The position numbers and the translations under genes were made by a program. This document shows, in pieces, positions 13,830 through 41,116 of a stretch of DNA of 64,000 nucleotides (position 1 is its first letter; every line of letters begins with the position of its first letter). The DNA comes from Eledone cirrhosa. Its lineage: Eukaryota. The DNA is taken from assembly GCA_964016885.1 (NCBI GenBank), contig OZ024743.1:229524001-229588000 (forward strand), written 5' to 3'. The notes under the pieces were generated by a model, which did not search any database, was not told the origin of the DNA, and saw only the letters and a program-made list of their open reading frames with translations.

Positions 13830-14382
13830 TTGGTCATACCAGATATCATTGTAAAAGTCCAACATAGCAAGGTCTGTTTAGTGCTTGATATGAGCATCCC
13901 CTGTGATCACAATATCGCGTCAAAAGAATTCGACAAGCTAAGAAATTATATAGGTCTGCTTATTGAAATCGAAAAAATGTGGGAACGCAAGGCTGTTACA
14001 ATACCAGTGATTGTGGGCGCAGGAGGAATGATCAAGAAAGGAACAGAACATTATTTGCGAATGATTCCTGGTTTACCCTCTCTGCAAGAGGTGTAAAAAA
14101 TTGTTTTGACTGGTACTGTTACATGTATTGAGAAGAGCAATATCTCTGTGAGAATTATATGCCCCCTCCCCTGTGTGGATGTGTGTTTGAGTGTGTGTGT
14201 GAATACAGCACTATCTCTGTAAGAATGATATCTCTCGGTATGAATGATAATCTGTAAATTATATTCAATGAGGTGTGTTAACTGGGTTACCAAAGTACAC
14301 AGTGACTTTATTTGCCCTAGGTGTCAGGATAACACTCGGCATATATCAGAAACAATACTGAAGGAAAAGGAAAAACAACAAC
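13830..14382 (+). mobile_element. REL-endonuclease non-LTR retrotransposon (R4/Dong-like) 3' fragment 1
   Basis: PDIIVK..LDMSIPCD.N...KE..K...Y..L..EIEKMW..IPVIVGA.G, then 3'UTR and (AAT)n. Same family as 26336-27071. Confidence 0.85.
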
Positions 14383-14397
14383 AATGATAATAATAAT

Positions 14398-14513
14398 TGT
14401 TTTTACTTTTGGCACAAGGCCAACAATTACCCAGTACATTACTGGTACTTTATTTTATCGACCCCGTAAGGATGAAGGGCAAAGTTAACCTCGACGGGAT
14501 TTGAACTCAGACC

Positions 14514-14516
<3 letters not shown>
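14398..14516 (-). mobile_element. tRNA-derived SINE, 5'-truncated
   Basis: B-box GAGTTCAAATCCC, central CTTCATCCTTACGGGGTCGATAAAATAAAGTACC, tail GGCCTTGTGCC..(ATT)n. Confidence 0.8.
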
Positions 14517-14576
<60 letters not shown>

Positions 14577-14819
14577 TTTTCTTTATTAACCACAAGGGCT
14601 TACATAAAGTAGACATTAAGGACAGTACAGGACAATACAGGACGGTACAAATGGGCATTTCTGCGTGTAAAAAAAACAGAGGATGTAATAAAATAACAAA
14701 GAAAGATTCCCCAATAGGGGGGAGACTTCCGAGGGACATTTCTGGAGAAAGCCCATTAAAAGACCACAGTGACCCTGACCACCAGGGCAAGTGCCCTCTC
14801 ATAGTTTTCCACCTTTAAT

Positions 14820-16527
14820 TTACAGACACATACTCAGAGTAGGCCCATTCACTCGGGCCATAATTGCCTCTCTCATCCATCTTTCAACAAAATGCTGGAA
14901 AGAGAGCACTTCCCTCTCTACCCTGATTTTCCTTTTCTAATGAACTCTGTGTTTAGCAGAGTTATGGGTCTAAAATTATCTATGTTATCCCCCTTGTTCG
15001 GATCCTTTCTCAGCAGTGCCACCGCTCCTCGGCTCACAGAGCTGGTAATTCTCCCGTTCTCTTGCCAGTTGCAGTAGACGTCCGCCAAGAGGCCTCCGAA
15101 CAAGTCTGGCATCTGTACGTAAAGTTCATAGGGCAGACCATCCAAACCAGGCGATTTACCCCTTGTGCAGCCAGTCATTGCCTCCCGTACTTCAGCGACT
15201 GTTATCGGCTTTTCGCAACACTCCGCCTCAGTGGCTGAGAGCCGCGGCAGTCCGTCGAGGTAGACACTAAAGTCCATCCCTCGATCCGGCCCGCCGCTGC
15301 CCCCGAACAGCCTGCGAAGTGTCCCTAAAATGCTTCACACATTTGCCCGGGATCGAGTAGCATGCGCCCGTCGTGGTCCACCAAAGACCGGATCGTGGCT
15401 TTGTTGCCACGACGCGCCTCCGCCACTCGGGCCCATTGAACGGCTTTCGTCCTCTCGTGTCTGAGAGCACGCACCCTAGCTCTGACAACGCAGCCTTCGT
15501 GCTTTGCATTGAAGAATTGGTCAAGAGCCAATTTCGCCGCAAGTACGTCGGTCGCGATGACTTTGTTAAGCGCCTCGTCTAATTTTCTAACTAGTTCTCC
15601 CTCTGCTCTATTTTCTCTATTGCTAAAGCCTTACTAAACCTAATGGATTCCATTCTAATCGCTTATTTCAGAGCAAACCACCACTTTTTGTTGACGATGG
15701 CCCCTGTAAACGCCCGCTTAACTAGTTCGCTAATCCGGTCTCTGTAGGCCTTGCTCGCTGGTAAGGACGCGTTTAGCTTCCAGTAGCCGGGTCCTCGTCT
15801 ATGAAGCCTATCTAAGTCAGTCACACAGATCACGAATTTGTGGTCCGTGTAGCTGACTATCTTGAATTGTGGACAGCCTATGCTAGACCTATCTATTTCC
15901 CTACAAAATACTCTATCTAGATATGATCTGGATGACTCTATGCGATTTGTCCAAGTCCACATTGGTACATTCGGGAAATCCAATCGGTACCTGTCAGACA
16001 GTTCAAAACGCCTGAGCAGGTTGGTCAGGCTCTTGCACCATCCACCCCTATCCGCTAATCCCACACAGTTCCAGCGTGCATCTAAGATCCCGTTCCAGTC
16101 GCCCACTAACACTAAAGAGCGGGACGTTCCAAGAAAGGTCTCTAGACGCCGGAAGAAATGAGGCCGCCCTGCTCCTGTCGGGGCATAGACGGCCACTAGC
16201 CTGAAAGCTTGCCCGTCTCCGCTGGTCACGTCCAGCACCACCAACTTACACTCTGGGTCCAGGAAGATGGCCCGTATGGCGAGATCCAAACCTCTCCGAA
16301 AAAGCACAGCAACTCCCCCCCCCCCCCACCGATCCAGGACGGCTGGGAGATGAGTACACATCGTAGCCGCCGAAGATCGGTGCGAAGGCCCGTGCTTCGG
16401 AGATTCTGGTCTCTCTGATGGCCACTACATCTATGTTTAGTGACCTGAGGTCGTTAAGCAGGTGACCCTGCTTCCATGACGACCCCAAGCCACGCGCATT
16501 TATGCTGCCTATTCTGAGTGAGGTCAT
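14820..16527 (-). pseudogene. Copy A ORF2 remnant (APE endonuclease, RT core deleted)
   Basis: MTSLRIGSINARGL..YAPT..GDWN..TDH..PGLDG..RPITLLNTEF joined directly to the last codons of ORF2. Several frameshifts. Confidence 0.9.
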
Positions 16528-16562
16528 GTTTAAAATAGAGTGGAATAGATGTGAAAGACCAC

Positions 16563-18197
16563 TTACCTTACTTTTCATAGAGGAAGGATGGTTTTTCCAC
16601 CCCCTTTCACTTGATCGTCTGGTGAAGGGACCGTTGAATCGTCCCTTCGGCTGGTCGTCGGCTCTTCTATGAGTATGTCCGAATATACTCTCCGGTTGAG
16701 AGTCCCTCCTAGGTCTCTGAAATCACCAACTGCGTTGGGGAATTTCGTTTTAATGTTTGTGCATTGTTTCTGTGTATTTTTAGCAGTCTTATGTTAGTTG
16801 GCGTTTTGATTGGTGCTGGAATTTGATAGTCGTGCTGTAAAATGTCTGTGAGTTCAATTATGGAAGTCATTAGTTTCTTGTTGTGTGTATTTATTGCCGT
16901 GCATTTGTTTTTCTGGGGGTGGGGTGTGGTTCTGCTATTTTCTTGTCGTTGTTGCTGGGTGTGTGTGTTTTGTTGTTGTGTTTGCGATGTTGGTGCTTGT
17001 GGTGGTGGTGTTGAAGGTGTTGTTGTTGTTGTCGGTGGGGTTGTCGCCGGTGGTGATGGTGGTGCTAGTGTGGGTGGTGATGGTGTTGGTGGTGTTGCTG
17101 CTGTGAGTCTCTTTGCAGTAGCCTTTACCCTTTTTCATTTCTTTCCTCCCTTTTCGAAGGCGACGATGCGCTGCTTCTGCGTTTGTGCCTTCTTACGACC
17201 TTTTGCCAACCCTCTCTCACCTCACACTCCATGTCTGATTCTGTGAGGTCGGGGAGGGGTACCACCTCCACTCTTTCACTTATTGTTGTTGGTGATGTTT
17301 GCACTGGAGTCTCTGTTGCAGCTGCATTTGGTATTACTCTTGTTGTTGTTAATAATTCCACTGCTGCTGCTGTTTTTGATTTCCGTGGCGTGGGTATGGG
17401 TGCCACGGACCTATCGTTCCTGGTTGCCGCTTGTCCTGTTGCTGATAGCCGTGGAGCCGGTTTCGGAAGGAGGGGGATTTTCGTTGCAGAAGGCTCTGAG
17501 GTGAGTCTTCGATCCACAGCGAAAGCATTTCGGGCGTTTGCCCTCAACACTTATGGGCAGTTGAGTGCCGTTATCGAAGTCTATCACATCTGGGATAGCT
17601 TCGATGCACTCCTGGTTGGTTTGGATTAACATCTCAATGGAGGTGCCGACCCAATCTTCTATTACCTTTTTCTGTACTTGCAGTACAGTTGTTTTGTCCT
17701 CGATTCCGACGAGGACAGACGCGGCCAGCCAAGAAGGGGCCATCCCGGGGGAGGGGGGGGGGGGGGTCAGTTTGACCCTCACAATTTTTTGCCCGCAGTA
17801 GGAGGGCACCAACACCATTTCCTCGCTCCTTAGGGTCACTAAGGATTGAGCCTTTGCCTCCTGGAGTGTGGCAAAAAGCACGTCTACGGTGGCATATTTC
17901 TTGCCTCGGGTGATGTGCGTTTTCCGCTGCCACACAGACCCTAAGGCATTTTGTATTTGACCCTCTGTGGCTCTTTCAACCCTACGGGATTTTGTGCTTA
18001 CTGTACGGTACGTGACCGTACAGTGCTGTTGGGTTTCGAAACATTTTTCGGCTGCCTTGCAGATTGCTCGGTGTCCGGTTTTCGTCACCATCTTCTTCGC
18101 TTCCTCTAATTCCTCATTTGTTATGAGGATGGATCCAGGTTCTTTGCGATACCTGCAAACGAGATTGGTTTTTCTTTGCTGCTGTTGTTGTTGTTGC

Positions 18198-18228
<31 letters not shown>

Positions 18229-18570
18229 AATGCTGTTGTTGTTTATGCTGCTGCTGCTACTGTTGCGGCTGCTACTGTTGTTTTCATTGTCACTGTTGCT
18301 GCTGCTGCTGCTGTTATTACGGCTGCTACTGCTATTATTCCTGACGTCAGACGAATGAAATGGGTTTTCGTATTCCCCGCACACCTTTTTCGTCGTTGTC
18401 GTCGTCGTCGTGGAGAAATCTTGCACGCTTTCTACGTGATTTTTCTTTTCTGGAGACACATTTAAAGAAGGGAGGGAGAGAGACAATCTTCTCTCTGCTG
18501 TAGTGACGATTGAGGAAGAAGAAGACGGAATGAGTGGGAGTGACATATGAACATTTTTTTTCGTAGCCAT
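16563..18570 (-). pseudogene. Copy A ORF1 remnant (CCHC zinc knuckle)
   Basis: Split across several ORFs, contains CFRCGSKTHLRAFC, homologous to 31776-33875. Confidence 0.88.
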
Positions 18571-19063
18571 GTTTTTTTTTTTGTTTAAAATAAATATTGG
18601 GCACAAAATCCCAATAAGCGGTTATTTAACCCCGAAGGGCCAAATAACGGGCAGAAAAACCCCTCTCACGAGGAGGAGTGTGTTTTTGTCTACAAGTTGG
18701 TTAAAGTTTTAAACAATTTACAATTGTTATAGCGGTCAAAATTTACAATACCTTACAGAGCCGAGCCTCCGAAAACCATAGCATTCAATAATAATAATAA
18801 TAATGATTTCATTTATTGGCCACAAGGGCCGACATATAGGGGACAACACAATAGACAGGGACAGTGGGGGTTTACATAGAGATCGAGTAAGTATAAATAA
18901 CAAAAAAACAAAAACAAAATAACAATAAAAATACAACAATGAAAGTTCCCCAATAAGAGGGATCACCACCCAGGGTTGACTCAAGCACCCCACCAGTCCT
19001 GAGCCACCCGACGCTCCTAGGGCACCCGGGAAGGGCACCCCTCTCCTTCTCGAATTCACCAGC

Positions 19064-22000
19064 CTACAGGCGCATGATCAGAGTAGGCCCACTCACGCGG
19101 GCCATTCTCGCCACATTCACCCACCTTTCAGTAAATGTACTGGGGGGCAGCACTTCTCTCTCCACCCTCACCTTCCTTTCCAAGTGAAACTTGAAGAAGT
19201 TGATGAGGGATTGGCCGAAGAGAAAAGTGTCTGTCTTCAGTCCTTTCAACCTGGTCCACCATGCAACCTCTTTCGCTACTGCCACCAGGCAGAGGAAAAT
19301 TGCCTGCCCTTCCTGACCAAAAGAAGGCGGCGGGTCAATCTTCACTATGGACTCGGACGATAGCCGGATCCGTTCTACACGCGACAATAGCTGTTCGACA
19401 TAACCCCACAAGTCAGCAATGCACGGACACTGGACGAGTGCGTGCAGAACGGTTTCGTCGCTCTGCGCGCATCTCGGGCAGGTTCGTCTGACAGCACTTC
19501 CGTGCCTGTAGAGTTTATCCCGAACCGGCAGCGCCCCCCGGTAGCACTGCCAAGCGAGGGATTTCTGGAAGTTATCCATCGTCCCCGGCTCGAAAGTCCT
19601 CCGGAACATACTGGTCAGTTCTACTTCGTTGACGCCCAGAGCCTCTCCTAGTACGTCATCGCACTTGCCCTCCACTAATCCTCTATAGAAATCTTGAGTG
19701 GAAGTTCCACTGACCGCATTGCCCACCTTGCAGAGTGCAGTGAGCGCCTGGCAACATTCCAGATGCCAGTCGCCCAGTCTCGGTCTCTTCTTGACCCAGG
19801 ACTGCAGCTCAGTCAAAGAGATGAGCTGCGGAAAGGCCCGTCTAACAAACGGCGACCACACCTGTTCACCGTTTAGGCAAAATATCTGGAGATGTCGCAG
19901 CCTCAGCGCATGTCTGCGCATCATTAGCCACGGCATGCCCAGCCCTCCACGAAGAGGGTGCTGGCAGCAGATGGACCGCCTCACCAACGGGACCCGTCCC
20001 CTCCACAAAAATTTGAAAAGGAGCCGTTCCAAATTGGCGAGGCGTGGACGGGGGCAAGGCACGACGGTCAGGCGGTAGTAGATGACGGACGCGATGTACG
20101 CGTTCGCCACCTCCGCCCGCCCTTTCAGTGATAGCTTTCTCTCAGCCCATTTCTGGGTGAGGTTGGCTATCCTGCTCGTCACCTCGTCCCAATTCTTATC
20201 CACCTGGAGGTCTGGTCCGAACCAAACCCCGAGCAACTTTACCGGTCCGTCTGTCCAGCGCCCAACGACGCTGTTGGACGGCATGGACTTGCCTCTCCAG
20301 GTGCCGAGCTGCAAGCCCACCGACTTTTCCGGGTTAAGTTTTGCTCCCGTCAACCTTTCATATTCCTCCAAATGGGTGCGGATCACCTCGATTTCCGAGG
20401 TGTCCGACACCATCACGGTGATGTCGTCCGCATAAGCGGACGCAGCCTTTCTACGTCCCGGTTCGAGCGGGATGCCCTGCAACAACTCCAGCTTCCGCAG
20501 TAGAGGCTCAAGAGTCAATACGTACAGAAGTGAGGAGAGAGGGCACCCTTGACGGACCGATCGAGAGATCTGAAACGGTTCCGAGAGGTGGCCATTAACT
20601 TTGACCACCGAGCGGATGCCGCTGTACATTGCAGCGATCCAGCTTCTGAAGACGGGGCCGAAGCCAGCCGCCTCGAGGACAGCCTCCAAGTACCGATGGT
20701 CGACCCTATCGAATGCTTTCGATTGATCTAAATTGATCAGAGCCCCACCGAAGCCAGGTTTGCACCCAACCCTCTCTATGATGTATCGCATGAGGTGGAG
20801 GTTGTCGTGTATGGACCTGGTCGGGATTGCGCAAGTTTGCGCCTCCCCAACCAAATCTTTGACGACAAGCGCCAACCTTTTCGCTAACACCTTGGCCAAA
20901 ATCTTAAACTCTGTGTTGAGCAGGGTTATGGGCCTGAAATTATCTAGTGTGTCCCTCTTGTTCTCGTCTTTCCTTATCAGCGTCACTACGCCACGGCTCA
21001 CAGAACTGGGAATGCTCCCGTTCTGCTGCCAGTTGCAGTAGAGCGCTTCGAGGAGATCGGAGAACAAGTCTGGCATATTTACGTAAAGCTCGTAGGGCAG
21101 ACCATCCAAACCGGGTGACTTGCGACTCGAGCAGCCGACAAGGGCGTCCTGAATTTCGGCTGATGTTATCGGCTCTTCGCAGCGCTCAGCGTTGGCCGTC
21201 GAGAGGCGTGGCAAGCCGTCGAGGTAGGGACTGAAGTCCGCCGCCGTCTCCGACTCACCCATCCTCCCGAACAATCGAGCAAAGTGCTGGCGAAAGGCCT
21301 CACACATCTGCTTGGAATCGCTCAGTTCGTGTCCATCTCGATCCGTCAAAGACCGAATTGTGGTTTTATTTCCACGCTGCGTCTCTGCAAAGCGAGCCCA
21401 TCGGGCAGCTTTGGTTCCCTCGTTCCTCAGAGCACGCGCCTTAGCTCTGACAATGCAACCTTCGTGTTTCGCATTGAAGAAATGGTCTAGTGCCATTCTC
21501 GCCGCTAGCACGTCTGTTGCAATGCCACTACAAATAGCCTCGTCTAACTTAGCTATCAGCCCCTCCTCCTTTCTATTTTTCTCTATTGCTACTTCTTTGC
21601 TAAATCCTATCGAGGTTGCTCTAATCTCTCTTTTGAGTGCCCCCCACCACCTGTTGTTGACAACCCCCCCTGTCAACTTTTGCTTAACTAAGTTGTTGAC
21701 CCGGTCCCTGTAAGCTTTACGTGCCGGAAACGACATGTTTAGCTTCCAGTAGCTAGGTCCTAACCTACGTGTCTTATCTAGGTCGACCATACAGATCACA
21801 AGCTTGTGATCTGAATAGGCAACCGTTTTAAAATGTGGACATCCTACACTATTTCTATCTCTTTTCCTAATGAAAATCCTATCTATGTACGATCTAGATG
21901 ACCCTATGCGATTGGTCCAGGTCCATACTGGCGCATTAGGGAAATCTAGTCGGTACCTGTCAGACAGTTGAAACTGGCTGATCAGGTACTTGAGGCTTTT

Positions 22001-22483
22001 GCACCCCCCGCTCCTATCAGATACTCCCACACAATCCCAGCGTGCTTCTAAGATGCCATTCCAATCCCCTATTAACAGTAAAGGGCGAGACGTAAGCAGA
22101 AAGTTTTCCAGGCGCCTAAAGAAGTCCGGCCGACCGGCCCCAGTAGGGGCGTAGACGGCCACCAGTCTAAAGGCACCACCTTCGCTATTGCTCACGTCCA
22201 GGACCACCAACTTTCCGTCAGGATCCCGGAAGATTGACCTTACCTCGAGATCCAGACATTTCCTAAACAGCACAGCCACTCCACCTCCCATTCCCGGCCG
22301 ACTAACAGATGCAAAGATCTGATAATCGTCGAAAATCGGCGCCAGTGCGCGTGTGTCGGAAATTCTGGTCTCGCTGATGGCAATTACATCCATTCCTAGT
22401 GACCTGAGGTCGTTGAGCAAGTGACCTTGCTTCCAGGGCGACCCCAGGCCACGAACATTTAAACTTCCTACTCTTATGGCCAT
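19064..22483 (-). CDS. LINE ORF2: APE endonuclease + reverse transcriptase + C-terminal zinc finger (1139 aa)
   Basis: GSLNVRGL, ISET, YAP, GDWN, IDR..SDH, YWKLN, PGLDG, RPITLLN, LDQSKAFDRVDH, RQGCPLS, YADD, CPRC..ETVLHALVQC. Confidence 0.97.
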   Translation of the reverse strand: MAIRVGSLNVRGLGSPWKQGHLLNDLRSLGMDVIAISETRISDTRALAPIFDDYQIFASVSRPGMGGGVAVLFRKCLDLEVRSIFRDPDGKLVVLDVSNSEGGAFRLVAVYAPTGAGRPDFFRRLENFLLTSRPLLLIGDWNGILEARWDCVGVSDRSGGCKSLKYLISQFQLSDRYRLDFPNAPVWTWTNRIGSSRSYIDRIFIRKRDRNSVGCPHFKTVAYSDHKLVICMVDLDKTRRLGPSYWKLNMSFPARKAYRDRVNNLVKQKLTGGVVNNRWWGALKREIRATSIGFSKEVAIEKNRKEEGLIAKLDEAICSGIATDVLAARMALDHFFNAKHEGCIVRAKARALRNEGTKAARWARFAETQRGNKTTIRSLTDRDGHELSDSKQMCEAFRQHFARLFGRMGESETAADFSPYLDGLPRLSTANAERCEEPITSAEIQDALVGCSSRKSPGLDGLPYELYVNMPDLFSDLLEALYCNWQQNGSIPSSVSRGVVTLIRKDENKRDTLDNFRPITLLNTEFKILAKVLAKRLALVVKDLVGEAQTCAIPTRSIHDNLHLMRYIIERVGCKPGFGGALINLDQSKAFDRVDHRYLEAVLEAAGFGPVFRSWIAAMYSGIRSVVKVNGHLSEPFQISRSVRQGCPLSSLLYVLTLEPLLRKLELLQGIPLEPGRRKAASAYADDITVMVSDTSEIEVIRTHLEEYERLTGAKLNPEKSVGLQLGTWRGKSMPSNSVVGRWTDGPVKLLGVWFGPDLQVDKNWDEVTSRIANLTQKWAERKLSLKGRAEVANAYIASVIYYRLTVVPCPRPRLANLERLLFKFLWRGRVPLVRRSICCQHPLRGGLGMPWLMMRRHALRLRHLQIFCLNGEQVWSPFVRRAFPQLISLTELQSWVKKRPRLGDWHLECCQALTALCKVGNAVSGTSTQDFYRGLVEGKCDDVLGEALGVNEVELTSMFRRTFEPGTMDNFQKSLAWQCYRGALPVRDKLYRHGSAVRRTCPRCAQSDETVLHALVQCPCIADLWGYVEQLLSRVERIRLSSESIVKIDPPPSFGQEGQAIFLCLVAVAKEVAWWTRLKGLKTDTFLFGQSLINFFKFHLERKVRVEREVLPPSTFTERWVNVARMARVSGPTLIMRL

Positions 22484-22512
22484 GCTGGCAGGATGAATGG
22501 GAGAGGAAAGGT

Positions 22513-24423
22513 TTACTTACCTTCCGGGGTCTTGTGAAGGTCGGGTGGTTCGACCTCCATGGTTTGTGGGGTTTCTTTTGGGAACCCCTTTAATAGTCTT
22601 GACGTGGGTTTTACGTTCGGGGTTCCCACATCCCGAGGAAAGCTCTTTCGAATTTCTTTGTATGAAGCGAGCGACATTCGCATCAGAAGCAAATTATCTG
22701 GTACGCGAAATGTGCTCGCTTCAAATGTTTCCCCGTCTTTTTCGATGTTTGTGCTTCGTGCTACATGGGCCATCAATTCCTTGTTGGCCCTTCTGGCGAG
22801 CACGAAGTTTTTAATGTTTTGTTGCTCGGGTTTTATTTGTTCGTGTGATTGTGGTGGTGATAGCTTTGTTAGTGTTGTTTCTATTGTGTCTGCGTTTGTT
22901 GTGGGTGGGGTGTCTGTAGTTTCTGATGTTTGTGTGTCTATTTGTTCTTGTGTCTGTTTAGCTTGTTTGCGTTTGGGGGATTTTGGTGGTTGTGTTGGTG
23001 ATGCTGTGGGGAAAATGTTTGTGTGGGTGGTGTGTGTATTTTTTTTTGTGGGGGTGTCTGTGCTTTGTGGATTTCTTTTTTTTTTGTGTTTTGTTTTTTG
23101 TATTTTGGGGGACTTTGGTTTTCCCTCATCTTCACTGCTGGAGGATGAGGGGTCTGTGGCTGTGAGCGTGTTTGTGTCTGAGTGAGTGTTTATGTTCTTG
23201 TTCGTGTGTGTATTTTGGGGGGGAGGGGGAATGGGAGAGCTTTCCTCGTTTCCCCCCTGGGTGTGCAATTTTGGTGGTTCCATTGTTGACGGTGTTGCTG
23301 GTGGTCCTTGTCCCGGCGTCGCCAGCAGTGGAATCTTTCGACCCCTTGCGCTTTTCGGCAGTTGAGGGCAGAAGGCTCGCAAGTGTGTCGTTTCCCCACA
23401 AAGGAAACAATGCGGCCTTTTGCCCTCAGTCATTATATGCAACACCCTCCCGTTTTGGAGGCGGATGTGGTCCGGGATTGTTTTTACGTTTTCGGGTCTG
23501 ATTTGGAGCAGTATCTCCAGATCAACCCCGGACCAGTCGTCCCTGGCAGTTCTCGTTGCCTCTACCGGGACTGTATCCGTTCCTTCCACGATTACGCAAC
23601 CCAGGAGCCACCACATATCAAGTCCTGGTGGAATCCTGGGAATGCGCACACGTGCTATTCGTTTTCCCATGTGGGAGGGGTACATTATGACCTTGCTGGT
23701 TTTGCAAGGGGTCATTGAATGCTTCACAGCGAGGGCTTCAGACTTGAACAGCACCGAAACGGTGCCGTATTGCCTGCCCCTCTCTATGAAGTCTGTGTCC
23801 TCTCTGATGTATTTCAGTGCGGCTTCTATGTCAGCTTGGGCGATTATCGCTGCCCTCTTTGTCTCTACTGAGATGCATCTGAAATGCACCGTTCTTTTTT
23901 CCACTGCCTCAATGGCTTCTGCCGGGACAGTTAAGTTTGCCCAGGTCTGCTCTTGATTTATGATTTTCCAGGCCTGGGCCAACTTTTCCTCTCTGTTGGT
24001 TAAGTCGATGCTGTAGCATGGTCTCCTTTTAGCCGCTGCCACAGCAGCGAAAGTGTTCTTGTTGGTGTTGTCACTGTTGTTGTTCTTGTTGGTGTTGCTG
24101 CTGCTATTGCTGTTGTTGTTCTCCCCTGTGTCGTGGTTACCTTCTGTGCTGTTGGCCTTGTTGGTGCTGCTGCTGTCGCTACTATTACTCTCTGTGCTGT
24201 TCGTTTTGTTGGTGCTCTCGCTATTACCACCTTCTGCGCTGTTCGGCTTGTTGGTGTTGGTGTTGTCGCTGTTACCACCTTCCGCGCCGCTCGGCCCGTT
24301 GGTGCTGGCACTGTCGCTGCTCACATTCGTGCTGGTGGCTCTCCTCGCCTCACCTCTCCTCTCAACGCTCAAGTCGCCGTTGCACGACAGCAGACCCGCC
24401 TCTAGGGGGCGTGGCTCCGCCAT
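22513..24423 (-). CDS. LINE ORF1 nucleic-acid-binding protein with CCHC knuckle (636 aa)
   Basis: CFLCGETTHLRAFC, S/N-rich N-terminus, P/T/K-rich C-terminal region, lies immediately upstream of ORF2. Confidence 0.92.
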   Translation of the reverse strand: MAEPRPLEAGLLSCNGDLSVERRGEARRATSTNVSSDSASTNGPSGAEGGNSDNTNTNKPNSAEGGNSESTNKTNSTESNSSDSSSTNKANSTEGNHDTGENNNSNSSSNTNKNNNSDNTNKNTFAAVAAAKRRPCYSIDLTNREEKLAQAWKIINQEQTWANLTVPAEAIEAVEKRTVHFRCISVETKRAAIIAQADIEAALKYIREDTDFIERGRQYGTVSVLFKSEALAVKHSMTPCKTSKVIMYPSHMGKRIARVRIPRIPPGLDMWWLLGCVIVEGTDTVPVEATRTARDDWSGVDLEILLQIRPENVKTIPDHIRLQNGRVLHIMTEGKRPHCFLCGETTHLRAFCPQLPKSARGRKIPLLATPGQGPPATPSTMEPPKLHTQGGNEESSPIPPPPQNTHTNKNINTHSDTNTLTATDPSSSSSEDEGKPKSPKIQKTKHKKKRNPQSTDTPTKKNTHTTHTNIFPTASPTQPPKSPKRKQAKQTQEQIDTQTSETTDTPPTTNADTIETTLTKLSPPQSHEQIKPEQQNIKNFVLARRANKELMAHVARSTNIEKDGETFEASTFRVPDNLLLMRMSLASYKEIRKSFPRDVGTPNVKPTSRLLKGFPKETPQTMEVEPPDLHKTPEGK

Positions 24424-24656
24424 GTTTTTTTGAGAAAAAAATTATTATTTTTTTCAAAATAAAGTTCAAATATTTGGGCCAAAAGGCCCAAATATTATGA
24501 GTTATTCCTTCACAGGATACAAATTAATGTCTTATAATGCTTCAGCGGTACAAAAAATAAACAATTCTCTACAATTAATCCTCAAAAATTGCTTACTCAC
24601 GGAGCTTCAAAAAACGTACATCCACTTTCGTCAATAATAATAATAATAATAATAAT

Positions 24657-25399: not shown

Positions 25400-25426
25400 A
25401 ATAATAATAATAATAATAATTATAAT

Positions 25427-26307
25427 ACCCAGAGCGAGCTAACAATCCTGATGTTGACAAAACTTTAACCCATCAGTGGTTGGCATCCTCTGGACTGAAA
25501 TCGGAGACTGAATGACTGATTATATCGGCACAAGATCAGTGTCTGCCAACAAAAAATTACCAAGCCAACATAATAAAAAATGGGTGCAGCCCATTATACC
25601 ATGTATGCAAAAAACAACCAGAGACCATTGACCATATAATTTCAATGTGCAGTCCTATAGCTCCAACCGAATACCTAAACAGGCATGACAGAGCTGCACA
25701 ATACATACATTGGATAATGTGTAAGCATTTTGACCTGCCCCATCAAAAGAATTGGTGGGAGCATCAACCACCTCCCATATTTGAAAAAGATCACATCTCA
25801 ATCTTGTGGAACTTTAGCATCCAAATAGACCGAAAAATAGATGCAAACAGACCTGATATAATATTGAAAGACTTTAAAAAGAGGGTATGCCTGCTAATTG
25901 ATATGTCTGTTCCAATAGACAAGAATGTATCTATAAAAACATTTGAAAAATTGAGCACGTATAAGGACCTGGAGATAGAAATTGGAAAAATGTGGAAATT
26001 GAGAACTAAAACAATACCAGTGGTTGTAGGCGCTCTGGGAATGATACCTAAGGGGGCTAATGATTACTTATCGCAAATCCCAGGAAACCCGCGTATAGGA
26101 GAAATACAAAAGATAGTACTAATGGGAACTGCCCATATACTAAGGAAGATTCTGTCAATATAAGTACATCACAAGTCTAAACACTAAAGATGCATGTGTG
26201 AATATGTATGTTCTTTCTTGAACATGGCGGACCTTGTTGTCTCTTGAGGTCACTGGTTGTGACTTGGTGATAACTCGTATGAACATAAAGCAAGATAAAT
26301 GCAACTG
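25427..26307 (+). mobile_element. R4/Dong-like REL element 3' fragment 3
   Basis: GLKSETE..AQDQ..ETIDHIISMC..YLNRHD..RPDIIL..LIDMSVP..KLSTYKDL..IPVVVGALG, (TAA)n tail. Confidence 0.9.
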
Positions 26308-26335
26308 TAATAATAATAATAATAATAATAATAAT

Positions 26336-27071
26336 ATAAACCCAAAGTGCCGATTCTGCAATGCTGGGGTTGAAACAGTGGATCACTTAGTCTCTGGATG
26401 TAATGTTTTAGCACAAATATAGACATGACAGAGTTGGCCAGTATCTACACTGGGTAATATGTCGGCATTACAAAATCAAAGCTGAAGACAAGTGGTACAG
26501 TCATCACTCTGAGGCTGTAACTGAAGGAGAAAAAGTAACAATTCTCTGGGACTTTCCTGTACATACTGACAGGACCATAAAAGCAAATAGACCTGACATC
26601 ATTGTAAAAGATCAACATAACAAGGTCTGTTTATTGATAGATATGAGCATCCCATGTGATCACAATATCGCGGCAATAAAACTGGACAACCTACGAAAAT
26701 ATAAAGATCTGCTTATTGAAATTGAGAAAATGTGGCACCTCAAGGCCGTTACAATACCAGTAATTGTGGGAGGACTGGGAATGACCAAGAAAGGAACAGA
26801 ACAATATTTGCGAATGATTCCTGGTTTACCCTCTCTGCACGAGGTGCAACAAATTGTTTTGACTGGTACTGTACACGTATTAAGAAGAGCACTATCTCTG
26901 TAAGATTGATATCCCTCCTTGTATTTACATATATGCATATGTGTATATATATGTATACTGTTTTTTTAAAATTATAATCAATGTGCTGTATTAACTGGCT
27001 TACCAATGCACACTGAATTTATTTGCCCTAGCTGTCAGGAAGACACTCGGCATATATCTCAGAATAAAAAC
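26336..27071 (+). mobile_element. R4/Dong-like REL element 3' fragment 4
   Basis: PKCRFC..ETVDHLVSGC..RHD..WDF..RPDIIVK..IDMSIP..KYKDL. 3'UTR shared with fragment 1, (AAT)n tail. Confidence 0.9.
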
Positions 27072-27083
27072 AATAATAATAAT

Positions 27084-27803
27084 ACTAGCTACAGAAGGAA
27101 TGCTAATGGCTACGCAAGAGCAAGCCCTCAGAACGAAGTGGGTGAAACACCATATTGACAATGAGGAGGCTAGCTCACTGTGTAGGATCTGTGGAGAGAG
27201 AGGAGATTGTGGCTCACATTGTATCCGACTCACTATAAAGGCTGGAGACATGATATGATAGGCAGGGTGATCCACTAGCATCTAAGCAAAGTAAAACAAT
27301 TTACCACATTCTGAGAAGTGGTATAAGCATAAGCCAGAGTCAGTGATAGAAAACGATCAGGTGAAGGTGCTATGGGATTGTAGGATACAGACGGACAAGA
27401 AATTAGAACACAATAGGCCTAGTGGTTTTGGAGAAGGAAAAAAGATCGTGCCTGATTGTAGATGTAGCCTGCCCATTTGACACGAGAGTGCAAGAAAAGG
27501 AGAGGGAGAAAATTAACCGATACCAGGATTTAAAGTGGGAGTTACAAAGGATTTGGAACTGCCATGAAATCAAGGTCGTCCCGATTGTCATAGGCGCACT
27601 AGGTACTATCTCAAAGAGTTTCCAAGGATGGTTAAAGAAGATTAGACCAGCCCTGCTTTTTCGAACACTTCAAAAGGCATGCTTGCTGGGAACAGCAAGA
27701 ACTTTTCGATACGTCCTGAATATCTGAGGCTGCAAATAGCGGCTTGATGTTATTTCAACAAACTTTCCAGTTAAATAACATCAATGACTGACACTCAAAG
27801 AAC
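27084..27803 (+). mobile_element. R4/Dong-like REL element 3' fragment 5
   Basis: Collinear with fragment 2 including the 3'UTR ending CTCAAAGAAC(AAT)n. Confidence 0.9.
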
Positions 27804-27833
27804 AATAATAATAATAATAATTATTATTATTAT

Positions 27834-28024
27834 TTCTGATTTAGGCACAAGGCCAACAATTATAACGAACCAGTGTGTTACTGGTACTTTATTCTTTCCA
27901 TCCCGCAAGGATAAAAGGCAAAGGTAACCTCGGTGGGATTTGAACTCTGAATGTAAAGCACCGTAACTCTATGCTACACTGCATGTTGTCCGGCGTACTA
28001 CAGATACTGCTAATCCACCGCCCT
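27834..28024 (-). mobile_element. tRNA-derived SINE, near full length
   Basis: GGCGGTGGATTAGCAG head, B-box GAGTTCAAATCCC, central domain, GGCCTTGTGCCTAAATCAGAAA tail. Confidence 0.82.
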
Positions 28025-28025
28025 G

Positions 28026-28059
<34 letters not shown>

Positions 28060-28320
28060 TTTCTTTATTAACCACAAGGGTTTACATAAAGTAGACATTA
28101 AGGACAGTGCAGGACAATGCAGGACGGTACAAATGGGCATTTCTGCGTGTAAAAAAAACAAAAATAGAGGATGTAACAAAAATAACAATGAAAATAACAA
28201 TGAAAAATTCCCCAATAGGGGGGAGACTTCGGAGGGACATTTGTGGAGAAAGCCCAGTAAAAAGCCACAATGACCCTGACCACCAAGGCAAGTGCCCTCT
28301 CCCAGTTTTCCACCTTTAGT

Positions 28321-31300
28321 TTACAGATATATACTCAGAGTCGGCCCATTCACTCGGGCCATTCTTGCTTCTCTCACCCATCTTTCAACAAAATGCTGGG
28401 AAGAGAGCACTTCCTTCTCTACTCTGATTTTCCTTTTCAAATGAAATTTGAAAAAGTCAATCAGAGCATCACCGAAGAGGTAAGTGCTCGTCTTCAGCCC
28501 TTTCAAACGTGTCCACCATACTATCTCTTTCGCCATGGCCACCAGACAGATAAAAACTGCCTGCCCTTCCCGGCTAAAGGAGGAGGGCGGGGCAATCCTC
28601 ACGATAGACTCAGATGATAGCTGGATCCGTCCTAAACGCGACAGCAGGTGTTCGACATAAACCCACAAGTCAGCAATTTTCGGACACTGGACGAGTGCGT
28701 GCAGGACGGTTTCGTCGCCCTGCGCGCATCTCGGACATGCCCGGCTGACGGCACCTCCATGCCTGTAGAGTTTATCCCGAACTGGCAAGGCTCCTCGGTA
28801 GCACTGCCAGGCCAGAGATTTCTGGAAGTTGTCCATAGGCCCCGGCCCGAAGGTTCTTCCGAAGAGATTGGCTAGTTGATTTTCGTCGACGCCTAGAGTT
28901 TCCCCAAGTACGTCGTCGCTCTTCCCCTCCACTAATCCTCTATAGAACGCCGAGGTGGAGTTTCCACCGATCACATTGCCCGATTGGTCGAGGGCTGTGA
29001 GCGCCTGAAGACATTCCAGTCTCCAGGCGCTCCCTCTCGGTCTTCGCTTGACCCAGGACTGCAGCTCCGTCAAGGAAACGAGCTGGGGAAAAACGCGTCT
29101 AGCAAACGGCGACCACACCTGATCACCGTCGAGGAAGAGGTGGAGATGTCGTAGCCTGAGCGCGTGCCTGCGCATCATCAGCCACGGCATGCCCAGCCCT
29201 CCACGTAGCGGGTGTTGACAACAGATGGACCGCCTGACCATCGGAGCACGTCCCTTCCACAAAAAGCGAAAGAGCAAACGCTCCAGCGCAGTCAGGCGAG
29301 GCTTAGGACAAGGTACGACGGTTAGGCGGTAGCAGATGACAGACGCGATGTACGCGTTAGCCACCTCCGCTCGACCTTTCAGGGATAGCTTCCTCTCCGC
29401 CCATTTCTGGGTGAGAGAAGCCACCCTGCTCGTCACCTCGTCCCAGTTTTTGTCCGTCTGGAGGTCCGGACCGAACCAGACCCCTAGCAATTTAACCGGT
29501 CCGTCCGTCCAGCGCCCGACGACGCTGTTGGACGGCATGGACCTGCCTCTCCAGGTGCCGAGCTGCAGGCCCACTGACTTTTCCTGGTTGATCATTGCTC
29601 CTGTCACCGCTTCGTATTCTCTTAGTGTAGTGCCGATCGCCTCGATGTGTTTGGCGTTCGACACCACTACGGTGACATCGTCCGCATATGCTGACACGGA
29701 TCTTCCGCATCCTAGTTCGCGCGGGACTCCCCTCAACGTCTCCAGTTTGTGCAGTAATGGCTCGAGAGTCAATACGTACAAGAGGGACGAGAGGGGACAT
29801 CCTTGGCGGACCGAGCGCATGATGTTGAACGGTTCCGACAGGTGACCGTTCACTCTCACTACAGAGCAGATGTCGCTGTGCATGGCAGCGATCCAGCCTC
29901 TGAAGACGGGCCCAAAGCCAGCCGCCCTCAGGACTGCCGCTAGGTAACGATGGTCGACCCTATCGAAAGCTTTCGACTGATCTAAATTGATCAAGGACCC
30001 ACCCGTGCCAGGTTCCCTAGCTACCCTCTCTACGATGTATCGCATGAGGTGGAGGTTGTCGTGGATGGATCTGTCGGGAATGGCGCATGTCTGCGCCTCT
30101 CCCACCAGACCACCAACGACAAGCGCCAACCTCTTTGCTAGCACCTTGGCCAAAATCTTAAACTCTGTGTTTAGCAGAGTTATGGGCCGGAAATTGTCTA
30201 TGTTATCCCCCTTGTTCGGATCCTTTCTCAGCAGTGCCACCGCTCCTCGGCTCACAGAACTGGGAATTCTCCCGTTCTGTTGCCAGTTGCAGTAGACGTC
30301 CGCCAAGAGGCCTCCGAACAAGTCTGGCATCTGTACGTAAAGTTCATAGGGCAGACCATCCAAACCAGGCGATTTACCCCTTCTGCAGCCAGTCATTGCC
30401 TCCCTTACTTCAGCGGCTGTTATCGGCTTTTCGCAACACTTCGCCTCAGTGGCCGAGAGCCGCGGCAGTCCGTCGAGGTAGACACTAAAGTCCATCCCTC
30501 TACCCGGCCCCCCGCTGCCCCCGAACAGCTGAGCGAAGTGTCGCTGAAAAGCTTCACACATTTGCCCGGGATCGAGTAGCATGCGCCCGTCGTGGTCCAC
30601 CAAAGACCGGATCGTGGCTTTGTTGCCACGACGCGCCTCCGCCACTCGGGCCCATTGAACGGCTTTCGTCCCCTCGTGTCTGAGAGCACGCACCCTAGCT
30701 CTGACAACGCAGCCTTCGTGCTTTGCATTGAAGAATTGGTCAAGGGCCAATTTCGCCGCAAGCACGTCGGTCGCAATGCCTTTGCTAAGCGCCTCGTCTA
30801 ATTTTCTAACTAGTTCTCCCTCTGCTCTATTTTTCTCTATTGCTAAAGCCTTACTAAACCTAATCGATTCTATTCTAATCGCTCTTTTCAGAGCAAACCA
30901 CCACTTGTTGTTGACGATGGCCCCCGTCAACGCCCTCTTAACTAGTTCGCTAATCCGGTCTCTGTAGGCCTTGCGCGCTGGTAAGGACGCGTTTAGCTTC
31001 CAGTAGCCGGGTCCTCGTCTATGAAGCCTATCTAAGTCAAGCACACAGATCACGAATTTGTGGTCCGTGTAGCTGACTATCTTGAATTGTGGACAGCCTA
31101 TGCTAGACCTATCTATTTCCCTACAAAATACTCTATCTAGATATGATCTGGATGACCCTATGCGGTTTGTCCAAGTCCACATTGGCACATTCGGGAAATC
31201 CAATCGGTACCTGTCAGACAGTTCAAAACGCCTGAGCAGGTTGGTGAGGCTGTTGCACCCTCCACCCCTATCCGCTAATCCCACACAGTCCCAGCGTGCA

Positions 31301-31740
31301 TCTAAGATCCCGTTCCAGTCGCCCACTAACACTAAAGAGCGGGACGTTCCAAGAAAGGTCTCCAGACGCCGGAAGAAATCAGGCCGCCCTGCTCCTGTCG
31401 GGGCATAGACGGCCACTAGCCTGAAAGCTTGCCCGTCTCCGCTGGTCACGTCCAGCACCACCAGCTTACCCTCTGGGTCCAGGAAGATGGCCCGTATGGC
31501 GAGATCCAAACCTCTCCGAAAAAGCACAGCAACTCCTCCACCCGATCCAGGACGGCTGGGAGATGCGTACACATCGTAGCCGCCGAAGATCGGTGCGAAG
31601 GCCCGTGCTTCGGAGATTCTGGTCTCGCTGATGGCCACTACATCTATGTTTAGTGACCTGAGGTCGTTGAGCAGGTGACCCTGCTTCCATGACGACCCCA
31701 AGCCACGCGCATTTATGCTGCCTATTCTGAGTGAGGTCAT
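28321..31740 (-). CDS. LINE ORF2: APE endonuclease + reverse transcriptase + zinc finger (1139 aa)
   Basis: GSINARGL, ISET, YAP, GDWN, LDR..TDH, PGLDG, LDQSKAFDRVDH, RQGCPLS, YADD, CPRC..HALVQC. Confidence 0.97.
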   Translation of the reverse strand: MTSLRIGSINARGLGSSWKQGHLLNDLRSLNIDVVAISETRISEARAFAPIFGGYDVYASPSRPGSGGGVAVLFRRGLDLAIRAIFLDPEGKLVVLDVTSGDGQAFRLVAVYAPTGAGRPDFFRRLETFLGTSRSLVLVGDWNGILDARWDCVGLADRGGGCNSLTNLLRRFELSDRYRLDFPNVPMWTWTNRIGSSRSYLDRVFCREIDRSSIGCPQFKIVSYTDHKFVICVLDLDRLHRRGPGYWKLNASLPARKAYRDRISELVKRALTGAIVNNKWWFALKRAIRIESIRFSKALAIEKNRAEGELVRKLDEALSKGIATDVLAAKLALDQFFNAKHEGCVVRARVRALRHEGTKAVQWARVAEARRGNKATIRSLVDHDGRMLLDPGQMCEAFQRHFAQLFGGSGGPGRGMDFSVYLDGLPRLSATEAKCCEKPITAAEVREAMTGCRRGKSPGLDGLPYELYVQMPDLFGGLLADVYCNWQQNGRIPSSVSRGAVALLRKDPNKGDNIDNFRPITLLNTEFKILAKVLAKRLALVVGGLVGEAQTCAIPDRSIHDNLHLMRYIVERVAREPGTGGSLINLDQSKAFDRVDHRYLAAVLRAAGFGPVFRGWIAAMHSDICSVVRVNGHLSEPFNIMRSVRQGCPLSSLLYVLTLEPLLHKLETLRGVPRELGCGRSVSAYADDVTVVVSNAKHIEAIGTTLREYEAVTGAMINQEKSVGLQLGTWRGRSMPSNSVVGRWTDGPVKLLGVWFGPDLQTDKNWDEVTSRVASLTQKWAERKLSLKGRAEVANAYIASVICYRLTVVPCPKPRLTALERLLFRFLWKGRAPMVRRSICCQHPLRGGLGMPWLMMRRHALRLRHLHLFLDGDQVWSPFARRVFPQLVSLTELQSWVKRRPRGSAWRLECLQALTALDQSGNVIGGNSTSAFYRGLVEGKSDDVLGETLGVDENQLANLFGRTFGPGPMDNFQKSLAWQCYRGALPVRDKLYRHGGAVSRACPRCAQGDETVLHALVQCPKIADLWVYVEHLLSRLGRIQLSSESIVRIAPPSSFSREGQAVFICLVAMAKEIVWWTRLKGLKTSTYLFGDALIDFFKFHLKRKIRVEKEVLSSQHFVERWVREARMARVNGPTLSIYL

Positions 31741-31775
31741 GTTTAAAATAGAGTGGAAAAGATGGGAAAGACCAC

Positions 31776-33875
31776 TTACCGTACTTTTGGTAGAGGAGGG
31801 ATGGTTTTTACATCCCTTTTCACTTGATCGTCTGGTGAAGGGACCGTTGAATCGTCCCTTCGGCTGGTCGTCGGCTCTTCTAAGAGAATGTCTGAATATA
31901 CTCTTCGATTAATGGTTCCTCCTAGGTCCCTGAAATCACCAACTGCGTTGGGGAATTTCGTTTTAATGTTTGTGTATTGTTTCTGTGCTATTTTTAGCAG
32001 TCTTATGTTAGTTGGCGTTTTGATTGGTGCTGGTATTATGTAGTCCTGTTGTGAAATGTCTGTGTGTTCAATTATGTAAGTCATTAGTTTCTTGTTGTGT
32101 GTATTTATTGCCGTGCATTTGTTTTTCTGGGGGTGGGGTGTGGTTCTGCTATTTTCTTGTCGTTGTTGCTGGGTGTGTGTGTTTTGTTGTTGTGTTTGCG
32201 ATGTTGGTGCTTGTGGTGGTGGTGTTGAAGGTGTTGTTGGCGGTGGGGTTGTCGCCGGTGGTGATGGTGGCGCTAGTGTGGGTGGTGATGGTGTTGGTGT
32301 TGTTGCTGCTGTGGGTCTCTTTGCAGTAGACTTTACCCTTTTCTCATTTCTTTCCTCCCTTTTCAAAGGCGACGATGCGCTGCTTCTGCGTTTGTGCCTT
32401 CTTACGACCTTTTGCCATCTCTCTCCCACCTCACACTCCATGTCTGATTCTGTGAGGTCGGGGAGGGGTACCAACTCCACTCTTTCACTTGTTGTTGTTG
32501 GTGATGTTTGCACTGGAGTCTCTGTTGCAGCTGCATTTGGTATTGCTGTTGTTGTTGTTAGTATTTCCACTGCTGCTGCTGTTTTTGATTTCCGTGGAGT
32601 GGGTATGGGTGCCACGGGCCTATCGTTCCTGGTTGCCGCTTGTCCTGTTGCTGGTAGCCGTGGAGCCGGATTCGGAAGGAGGGGGGTTTTCTCCTTTCTC
32701 AGGGTCTTCTCGTTGCAGAAGGCCCTGAGGTGAGTCTTCGATCCACAGCGAAAGCATTTCGGGCGTTTGCCCTCAACACTTATGGGCAGTTGAGTGCCGT
32801 TATCGAAGTCTATCACATCCGGGATAGCTTCGATGCACTCCTGGTTGGTTTGGATTAGCATCTCAATGGAGGAGCCGACCCAATCTTCTCTTACTTTTTT
32901 CTGTACTTGCAGTACAGTTGTTTTGTCCTCGATTCCGACGAGGACAGACGCGGCCAGCCAAGAAGGGGTCATTCCGGGGGGGACGTGGGTCAGTTTGACC
33001 CTCACAATTTTTTGCCCGCAGTAGGAGGGCACCAACACCATTTCCTCGCTCCTTAGGGTCACTACTGATTGGGCCTTTGCCTCCTGGGGTGTGGCAAAAA
33101 GTACGTCTACGGTGGCGTATTTTTTGCCTCGGGTGATGTGCGTTTTCCTCTGCCACACAGACCCCAAAGCTTTTTGTATTTGGGCCTCTGTGGCTCTTTC
33201 CACCCTACGGGATTTTGTACTTACTGTACGGTACGTGACCGTACAGTGCTCTTGGGTTTCGAAAAAATTTTTCGCTGCCTTGCAGATTGCTCGGTGTCCG
33301 TTCTTTGTCACCATCTTCTTCGCTTCCTCTAATTCCTCATTTGTTATGAGGATTGTTTCCAGGTTTTTCGCAATACCTGCAAATGAGATTGGTTTTTCTC
33401 TGCTGTTGTTGTTGTCGTCAGAGCTGCTGGTACTTTTGTTGTTGCTGCAGGTACTACGACTACTGCCTCCGCCGCTGTTGCTGTGGTTGTTGTTGGTGTT
33501 GCTGCTGCTAATGCTGTTGTTGTTTATGCTGCTGGTGATGCTGTTGCGGCTGCTACTGTTGTTTTCATTGTCACTGTTGCTGTTGTTATTACGGCTGCTA
33601 CTGCTATTATTCCTGACGTCAGACGAATGAACTGGGTTTTCGTATTTCCCGCACACCTGTTTCGTCGCTGTCGTCGTCGTCGTGGAGAAACCTTGCACGC
33701 TTTGCACGAGACTTTTCTTTTCTTTCGTCGCTTGCGAAAGAGAAGGTAGGGAGAGAGACACATTTAAAGAAGGGAGGGAGAGAGACAATCTTCTCTCTCC
33801 TGTAGTGATGATTGAGGAAGAAGAAGACGGAATGAGTGGGAGTGACGTATGAAATTTTTTTTTTTTGGTAGCCAT
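31776..33875 (-). CDS. LINE ORF1 with CCHC knuckle (first ATG at 33875, MATKKKK)
   Basis: CFRCGSKTHLRAFC, S/N tract, P/T tract. Same ATG context in copy A. Confidence 0.9.
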   Translation of the reverse strand: MATKKKKFHTSLPLIPSSSSSIITTGERRLSLSLPSLNVSLSLPSLSQATKEKKSLVQSVQGFSTTTTTATKQVCGKYENPVHSSDVRNNSSSSRNNNSNSDNENNSSSRNSITSSINNNSISSSNTNNNHSNSGGGSSRSTCSNNKSTSSSDDNNNSREKPISFAGIAKNLETILITNEELEEAKKMVTKNGHRAICKAAKNFFETQEHCTVTYRTVSTKSRRVERATEAQIQKALGSVWQRKTHITRGKKYATVDVLFATPQEAKAQSVVTLRSEEMVLVPSYCGQKIVRVKLTHVPPGMTPSWLAASVLVGIEDKTTVLQVQKKVREDWVGSSIEMLIQTNQECIEAIPDVIDFDNGTQLPISVEGKRPKCFRCGSKTHLRAFCNEKTLRKEKTPLLPNPAPRLPATGQAATRNDRPVAPIPTPRKSKTAAAVEILTTTTAIPNAAATETPVQTSPTTTSERVELVPLPDLTESDMECEVGERWQKVVRRHKRRSSASSPLKREERNEKRVKSTAKRPTAATTPTPSPPTLAPPSPPATTPPPTTPSTPPPQAPTSQTQQQNTHTQQQRQENSRTTPHPQKNKCTAINTHNKKLMTYIIEHTDISQQDYIIPAPIKTPTNIRLLKIAQKQYTNIKTKFPNAVGDFRDLGGTINRRVYSDILLEEPTTSRRDDSTVPSPDDQVKRDVKTIPPLPKVR

Positions 33876-34803
33876 GTTTTTTTGTTTAAAATGAAATTTT
33901 GGGTACAAAACCCCAATAACTGGCTATTTAACCCCGAAGGGCCAAATAACGGACAGAAAGACCCCTCTCACGAGGAGGAGGGTGTCTTTATCAACAATTT
34001 GGTTCAAGTTTTAAACAATTTACAATTGTTTTAACGGTTAAAAATTACTATACCTTACAGAGCCGAGCCTCCGTCAACCATGGCATTCAATAATAATAAT
34101 AATAATAATGATAATGATTATACATATATAGACATATACATATATAGTCATATACATTAATATATCCATCCATCCATATATGTATACATATGTACATACA
34201 TAAGTGCATGCGTGCATATATGCATGAATGCATACATAAATACATACATCCATGCAATAATAATTAATTGCAGTAACAAAGCTCCGGACATGTAACATAT
34301 AGACTGATCAACGCTGCAATGACCGTCGTCTTAGTGACCACAGCTATTGGCCGTCGCCATTTTAATTTTGTCGTTTATTGCATCAATGTCAAAAGGTGAC
34401 ATTTATTGTCCCAGTAAAACTAGGACCGGCTTGTTGCCACTGGCTTTAACCAACTTAATCGAATTATCTTTCGACGACCAAGTCGTCTGTCCAGTTCGCT
34501 ACGTATGATGTTGACCATCCGAATCATCTGGACCGTACGTATGTCCTATAAATTCATCAAAAACAAAGTAAACCGTGTAAGATCTCGTTCGTTCAGTATG
34601 ATTGCCAGGAATTAAGAAATTTACGTTATTTACTGTTATCGAACACATAAATTATCGATTAACTCCGTCCAATCTCATTTCTTTTAGATAATGTCCACCA
34701 TCATTTCACGCCCACACAGACACATACATACATGCATATGCACACAAAAATGCAAATTTATATGTATAAGTGTGTGTGTGTACACATATATAAATGTGTA
34801 TAC

Positions 34804-41047: not shown

Positions 41048-41116
41048 TTTATCAATTAATTAATGAGACCATCCCAGATTCATTCTCAAGTGTGTGTGAC
41101 ATTGCTCCGTGAACTT

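Follow-up and report, generated by a model that had tools for sequence, protein, structure and literature searches.

What could bring ten retroelements of three kinds together, end to end, with little but AAT repeats between them? The question is raised by an array at positions 13838-34109 of the window, a 64,000-nucleotide stretch of Eledone cirrhosa DNA (forward strand of contig OZ024743.1, assembly GCA_964016885.1; G000:C4:229524001-229588000 in our numbering) within a 3.0-Gb assembly. Three families of long interspersed nuclear elements (LINEs) with a restriction-like endonuclease (RLE), named A, D and E, contribute five pieces to the plus strand (A1, D1, E, A2 and D2), all 5'-truncated. 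Two families of Tx1-like LINEs with an apurinic/apyrimidinic-type endonuclease (APE), B and C, contribute three copies to the minus strand (B1, C and B2), two of them intact, and two short interspersed elements (SINEs) also lie on the minus strand. Judging from sequence, the array most probably consists for the larger part of separate insertions into one AAT/ATT repeat, which the Tx1-like LINEs enter with (ATT)n on their sense strand and the RLE LINEs with (AAT)n on theirs, the primer nicks likely falling on opposite strands.

The array and its junctions

The array opens on the left with A1 (13838-14382, plus strand), a truncated 3' fragment whose 5' junction, at the left boundary near 13838, lacks AAT. 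All nine internal junctions and the right boundary contain (AAT)n. The first of these, AAT GAT (AAT)3 at 14383-14397, adjoins a 5'-truncated SINE (14398-14515, minus strand; 92% identical to another SINE near 40860-41050), and (AAT)20 at 14516-14575 separates this SINE from B1 (14576-18786, minus strand), an older copy with both ends present, an internal deletion of about 1.8 kb, broken open reading frames (ORFs) and 91.5% identity to B2. Beyond (AAT)6 at 18787-18804 lies LINE C (18805-24632, minus strand), full length and intact, with a 3' CTTGT hairpin and AATAAA; its ORF1 (22513-24441) spans 642 amino acids from stop to stop, and its ORF2 (19064-22516) spans 1150, with APE, reverse transcriptase (RT) and zf-RVT domains.

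The RLE pieces, which are truncated C-termini with CCHC, RHD and RPD..D..K motifs, occupy the center on the plus strand. Head to head with LINE C across (AAT)8 at 24633-24656 is the frameshifted D1 (24657-25399), followed across (AAT)7 at 25400-25420 by E (25421-26308), whose CCHC knuckle and other motifs are all present, across (AAT)9 at 26309-26335 by A2 (26336-27071), and across (AAT)4 at 27072-27083 by D2 (27084-27803). The tail-to-tail junction at 27804-27834 leads to the second SINE (27835-28027, minus strand), nearly full length and diverged by sequence comparison, and (AAT)10 at 28028-28057 to B2 (28058-34088, minus strand), full length and intact, with two long open frames: ORF1 (31776-33923, 715 amino acids) and ORF2 (28321-31908, 1195 amino acids from stop to stop; APE, RT and zf-RVT). 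The array closes with (AAT)7 at 34089-34109.

An earlier, sequence-only reading had placed ten elements of three groups here, five RLE elements on the plus strand and three Tx1 LINEs and two SINEs on the minus strand, with (AAT)n at every one of these junctions; all were found, with the refinement that the junction at 27804 is (AAT)6 followed by (ATT)5. Since the remaining 43.7 kb of the window holds just three AAT and two ATT runs of at least three units, the repeats at the junctions are far beyond chance. Identities between paired copies are 78% for A1/A2, 87% for D1/D2, 80% for the SINEs and about 91% for B1/B2, values expected neither from an assembly collapse nor from a single recent duplication. 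Of the ten elements, C and B2, both still intact, probably arrived last; A1, which has no repeat on its 5' side, may have seeded the target of the array with its own tail.

Targets, phase and polarity across the genome

For the Tx1-like LINEs, target choice, phase, polarity and a target duplication of about 15 bp that starts C|ATT can be read directly from the genomic copies. The start of LINE B, searched as an exact 26-mer, occurs 1604 times in the assembly and is preceded by ATTATTATT in 1564 cases, in one phase; the same sequence, again in one phase, precedes 310 of 316 LINE C 5' ends. The best-matching loci, 30 of 30 for B and 30 of 30 for C (one of the latter being the window copy itself), have the same 5' target. 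Seven of the 46 exceptional 5' ends were examined, and all seven still end in ATT-type sequence, none in AAT. At the other end, N-C-ATTATT comes next after 6485 of 7811 Tx1-like 3' end motifs. All 40 full-length copies examined are flanked on both sides by (ATT)n; they are 98.9-99.9% identical to the window copies, and most have both frames open. Many have unique DNA beyond the flanking repeat, and solitary copies with unrelated flanks share the same target.

At two of these seven loci, L355 and L357, an identical interrupted repeat flanks the element on either side, as exact duplications of 18 bp and 15 bp that start after a C. The pure ATT run before the Tx1-like start is at least 15 nucleotides long in 66 of 73 distinct junctions, a count that includes the seven deliberately chosen exceptions. 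Given these interrupted duplications, the 15-nucleotide floor and the exact (ATT)5 spacers of a C array described below, we take the flanking repeat to be a duplicated target of about 15 bp. The exact duplications at L355 and L357 also led us to reject the possibility that a 5' (ATT)n belongs to the Tx1-like elements themselves. Because the duplication leaves repeat on both sides, every Tx1-like insertion would make two new targets, and the self-renewing landing site that had been proposed for this locus is thereby upheld.

For LINE B, 7079 3' ends were counted and 1604 intact 5' ends, a large proportion of full-length copies, with a precise start at G. LINE C contains a 48-bp tandem repeat in ORF1 (window 24139-24318), and the difference between copy lengths near 5775 and near 5825 likely reflects one 48-bp unit less. 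LINE C also lies in near-identical degenerate ATT/GTT flanks at L112, L048/L120 and L125 (contigs C11, C4 and C3), which suggests either a host repeat that was hit repeatedly or later dispersal. An older Tx1-like 3' fragment in the window (58550-58870) is 72% identical to C and interrupted by (GA)n; no ATT flank was seen beside it.

The young RLE family E mirrors this pattern on the opposite strand. A pattern search found 2815 exact 3' motifs of this family in the genome; in 30 loci, the 3' end adjoins (AAT)n in all 30, and the true 5' truncation junctions are (AAT)n in 11 of 11, the other 5' sides comprising three internal deletions and 16 that ran past the locus. A full-length relative of E (L252) begins directly after (AAT)7 and has a frame of 1071 amino acids. 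Across the genome, the data support the proposal that APE and RLE LINEs have come to share one repeat while facing opposite ways.

Stacks like that of the window recur. Among the first 100 B 3' ends on contig C1, 56 have another within 12 kb, where 4.5 are expected by chance. In three other clusters, of 20, 29 and 40 kb, the RLE pieces all lie on one strand and the Tx1-like elements all on the other, with (AAT)n between them. Among adjacent ends in 288 loci, RLE-Tx1 neighbors are opposite in 25 of 26 cases and RLE-SINE neighbors in 9 of 9, and direction is shared by 25 of 25 Tx1-Tx1 and 3 of 4 SINE-Tx1 pairs. The further claim that no element interrupts another is true of the window array and fails elsewhere, as a SINE sits inside a Tx1-like body in another stack.

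The SINE follows a looser rule. Its 3' motif occurs 143,482 times in the genome; the SINE end is followed by ATTAT 156,675 times, by (ATT)4 in 14,487 cases (9%) and by ATAAT 723 times. At SINE loci, a duplication of 10-21 bp is present in 21 of 30, 19 of these starting with ATT, mostly after C, and the third SINE copy in the window (about 40860-41050, outside the array) has a clean 15-bp duplication in non-repeat DNA. The SINE therefore keeps the polarity and duplication size of the Tx1-like LINEs, needs only ATTAT and is not microsatellite-specific. It ends in GGC-CTTGT-GCC..GAAA, and the LINE 3' hairpins are GGCC-CTTGT-GGCC and AACC-CTTGT-GGTT, with different stems (GGCC/GGCC versus AACC/GGTT) around the same CTTGT loop. 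By this shared CUUGU-loop hairpin, the Tx1-like LINEs are the likely partners of the SINE; because so little sequence matches, this pairing is likely rather than proven. The SINE may be of the tRNA/CORE type and resembles octopus SINEs; Rfam gave no tRNA match at the two SINE loci searched. The accessible portions of PMC4758252, PMC3747384 and PMC3531059 name no Tx1 partner for such a SINE.

Elsewhere in the window, frames at 990-2294, 8400-9050, 52333-52785 and 63583-63993 resemble Penelope-type RT tail and GIY-YIG regions; the two of them that were scanned had no Pfam match.

Mechanism and competing explanations

In target-primed reverse transcription, the primer is the strand antisense to the element; the Tx1-like LINEs would therefore use the (AAT)n strand and the RLE LINEs the (ATT)n strand. 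By this logic, the Tx1-like APE, for which the frames of both B and C contain the catalytic motifs, would nick the bottom strand after ...AAT and then the top strand about 15 bp away, while for RLE elements the priming nick would lie on the (ATT)n strand. AATAAA lies 6-7 nucleotides before the Tx1-like end, yet none of the 40 full-length copies has a poly(A) tail; we infer that the RNA is cut within the downstream repeat. Its (AUU)n end could then pair with the nicked strand. The SINE would borrow the Tx1-like protein through the shared hairpin, and arrays also grow through local duplication of identical neighbors.

Several observations weigh against such an account, or narrow it. The strictness that the sequence-only reading saw holds for the young families alone: by eye in 30 loci each, 5' junctions are AAT in about 13 of 21 resolved cases for the older family D, with one (ATT)n, and in 14 of 23 for the older family A, an AAT share of about 60% against all for young E. 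Truncated B copies are likewise less strict, as 30 loci yielded nine true 5' junctions (besides two internal joins and 19 that ran past the locus), of which five are (ATT)n, two degenerate, one (CTT)n and one (AAT)n. The census of neighbors draws on 288 loci picked via these very elements and on recognizable ends only, and is not a random sample. It includes one opposite SINE-Tx1 pair and one same-direction RLE-Tx1 pair; the latter straddles a change from AAT to ATT, and each of its elements thus keeps its own polarity. Units of same-family arrays cluster together, so the clustering overstates fresh insertion. The likeness between the SINE and LINE 3' ends covers fewer than 30 nucleotides. Finally, sequencing runs under two other organism labels contain near-identical B, C and E pieces, none of which covers the array or informs on flanks, and no short-read contig spans the array; no RNA data set was among the holders listed.

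The alternative that survives best, although we think it unlikely, is that polarity and strictness come mainly from RNA-DNA pairing: a nuclease of loose specificity would cut either strand at a short AT-rich motif, and extension would be limited to nicks whose 3' end pairs with the (AUU)n or (AAU)n end of the RNA. The missing poly(A) tails fit this idea, and so does the SINE, which the same protein probably mobilizes and which lands at ATTAT with (ATT)4 at so few of its ends. Tail-guided site choice has moreover been proposed for RTE retroposons (PMC6007223). Against it, TRAS1/SART1 domain swaps show that the endonuclease sets the target (PMC7265360), a defined second cut is indicated by the 15-nucleotide floor together with the constant phase of the 5' junction, and an older, looser family may have moved the SINE. 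Nuclease and RNA may also share the role: the looseness of the SINE is the main hint of an RNA contribution, and for polarity, base pairing between the RNA tail and the nicked strand may count as much as the nuclease. We tentatively put forward a two-part code, for which the chances are similarly modest. On this view there would be an undescribed, currently active Tx1-like lineage whose nuclease recognizes no more than ATTAT, the strictness for microsatellites coming from the (AUU)n that its RNA gains by read-through; a single protein would then insert the LINE into microsatellites and the SINE almost anywhere, with RLE LINEs filling the other strand to build self-renewing stacks of 20-60 kb. 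If this is true, the division of target choice between nuclease and RNA becomes testable by a tail swap.

It is improbable that stacks owe their existence chiefly to tandem duplication or unequal crossing-over and contain few real insertions, even though duplication does contribute. Same-family neighbors are identical over 1.6 kb in 23 of 27 within-array pairs, against 97 of 843 pairs between loci. Five near-identical B copies (G000:C2:188,050,350-188,080,700; L365-L368) share the same 54-nucleotide spacer with a locus-specific GTTGTT variant, and this array likely arose by unequal crossing-over. In the window, the starts of D1 and D2 differ by just a few bases; a shared truncated subfamily was considered for them and is unsupported, as the window pair are the only copies to start there among 34 distinct upstream contexts. 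The same window argues the other way, since its pairs differ by 9-22%, unequally, and C is unpaired, and solitary copies with unrelated flanks hit the same target. Ten head-to-tail LINE C copies (G000:C1:423,367,678-423,420,172; L358-L364) have exactly (ATT)5 in all nine spacers. They fall into two age classes up to 42 substitutions apart, each clustering in a tree, which again speaks against duplication as the chief source, and the six copies on the 5' side resemble the young family more closely than do the four on the 3' side, a pattern like that of polar growth. For the window array, a stack of mostly separate insertions is the probable reading; elsewhere, part of the growth is local duplication of identical neighbors, by which some same-family arrays did grow.

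It is very improbable that the repeats are merely tails made by the elements, without targeting, the 5' repeats being neighbors' tails or carried by the elements. Many 5' repeats do adjoin the 3' end of another element, and tails surely seed new targets. This reading is, however, largely refuted by the locus-specific interrupted repeats duplicated on both sides, and truncated copies with differing breakpoints also begin after the repeat, as do many copies with unique DNA beyond it. Least credible of all, given ten distinct sequences with distinct junctions and a layout that recurs elsewhere with other members, is an assembly artefact, for which the high-copy repeat make-up and the lack of a spanning short-read contig would speak.

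Relationship to known elements

Preferring, then, separate insertions into a shared repeat, we turn to the lineages involved. B and C have two ORFs, and ORF2 combines APE, RT and a C-terminal zinc knuckle, the architecture of the Tx1/L1 group; they also show the target-sequence preference expected of the Tx1 clade. The best solved-structure match of the Tx1-like ORF2 is human L1 ORF2p, to which B ORF2 scores 180 bits, against 476 and 382 to two metagenomic elements that adjoin U2 small nuclear RNA (snRNA), the target of Keno. In a quick tree that contained neither L1 nor named Tx1 rows, B and C branch as a lineage of their own beside, not inside, the group with these two elements. Membership of B and C in the Tx1 clade is likely. 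Metagenomic Tx1-like elements next to U2 snRNA by Rfam were noted at L275, L277 and L271; L271 has a U1-like stretch near its 5' end, with no Rfam match. The metagenome relatives are distant (mostly 21-33% identity, a few segments up to 48%), and no ATT target or hairpin was seen at the ends of the 17 of 80 loci inspected.

The RLE elements have a single ORF with RT, a C-terminal CCHC motif and a PD-(D/E)xK RLE, and no APE, which is the R4/Dong architecture. The sense-strand (TAA)n target of that clade is found for E and more weakly for A and D, and by architecture and target A, D and E likely belong to it. Only R2 proteins matched the L252 frame among solved structures, and no named reference is among the 120 homologues listed. 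Recent activity of both Dong-R4 and L1-Tx1 is noted in the Octopus vulgaris repeat annotation (PMC13282606), the accessible part of which does not discuss targets.

The pattern itself is well supported across the genome; what is new is a combination of known behaviors, each with precedent, together with the (ATT)n target of Tx1-like LINEs and a likely SINE partner. R1 and R2 in 28S ribosomal DNA already illustrate APE and RLE elements converging on one multicopy target, although at distinct sites, in the same orientation within the gene and without regenerating the target. Target-specific LINEs as such fall in the RLE, Tx1 and R1 groups (PMC4640811). Neither (ATT)n-specific Tx1 elements nor mixed Tx1/RLE stacks were found in the literature searched, though Repbase, subscription papers or supplements may describe them.

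What follows is that (ATT)n joins the target repertoire of Tx1-like LINEs, that thousands of loci show APE and RLE machineries using a single repeat in opposite orientations, intact and nearly identical copies being available for assay, and that a likely partner can be named for a SINE of more than 150,000 copies. Strict LINE and loose SINE targeting offer a natural test of the roles of nuclease and RNA in choosing the landing site, and, in a genome of this kind, an AAT microsatellite is often the junction of an element.

Several known systems come close. Dong (R4 clade, RLE) has TAA repeats upstream of its 5' end (PMC3774820), the same sense-strand repeat as families A, D and E; here there are three families, the clade label comes from motifs, and Rfam found no ribozyme in L252, including the 5' hepatitis delta virus-like kind, although it may miss divergent forms. 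Among Tx1 elements, Kibi, Koshi and crocodilian families are specific for (TC)n, (TTC)n, (TTCC)n and (TTTC)n (PMC4494074) and are, like B and C, microsatellite-specific. The (TC)n or (TTC)n target of Kibi and Koshi is not that of B and C, apart from the single (CTT)n among nine truncated B junctions; theirs is (ATT)n, absent from the targets listed there, without a poly(A) tail and in a repeat shared with an RLE lineage. The same work describes SINEU, likely moved by Tx1-Mar in crocodilians, which shares its target with weaker preference in some families, and so parallels a SINE likely moved by Tx1 with varying strictness; SINEU heads derive from snRNA, whereas the present SINE exceeds 150,000 copies and has a 5-nucleotide motif as its target. 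TRAS1 and SART1 (R1 clade) insert into Bombyx (TTAGG)n in opposite directions and in fixed phase and need 2-3 repeat units (PMC7265360). There, as here, two kinds of LINE share one tandem repeat; but both of those are APE elements of one clade at telomeres, whereas the window array joins APE and RLE lineages in a dispersed microsatellite at thousands of loci.

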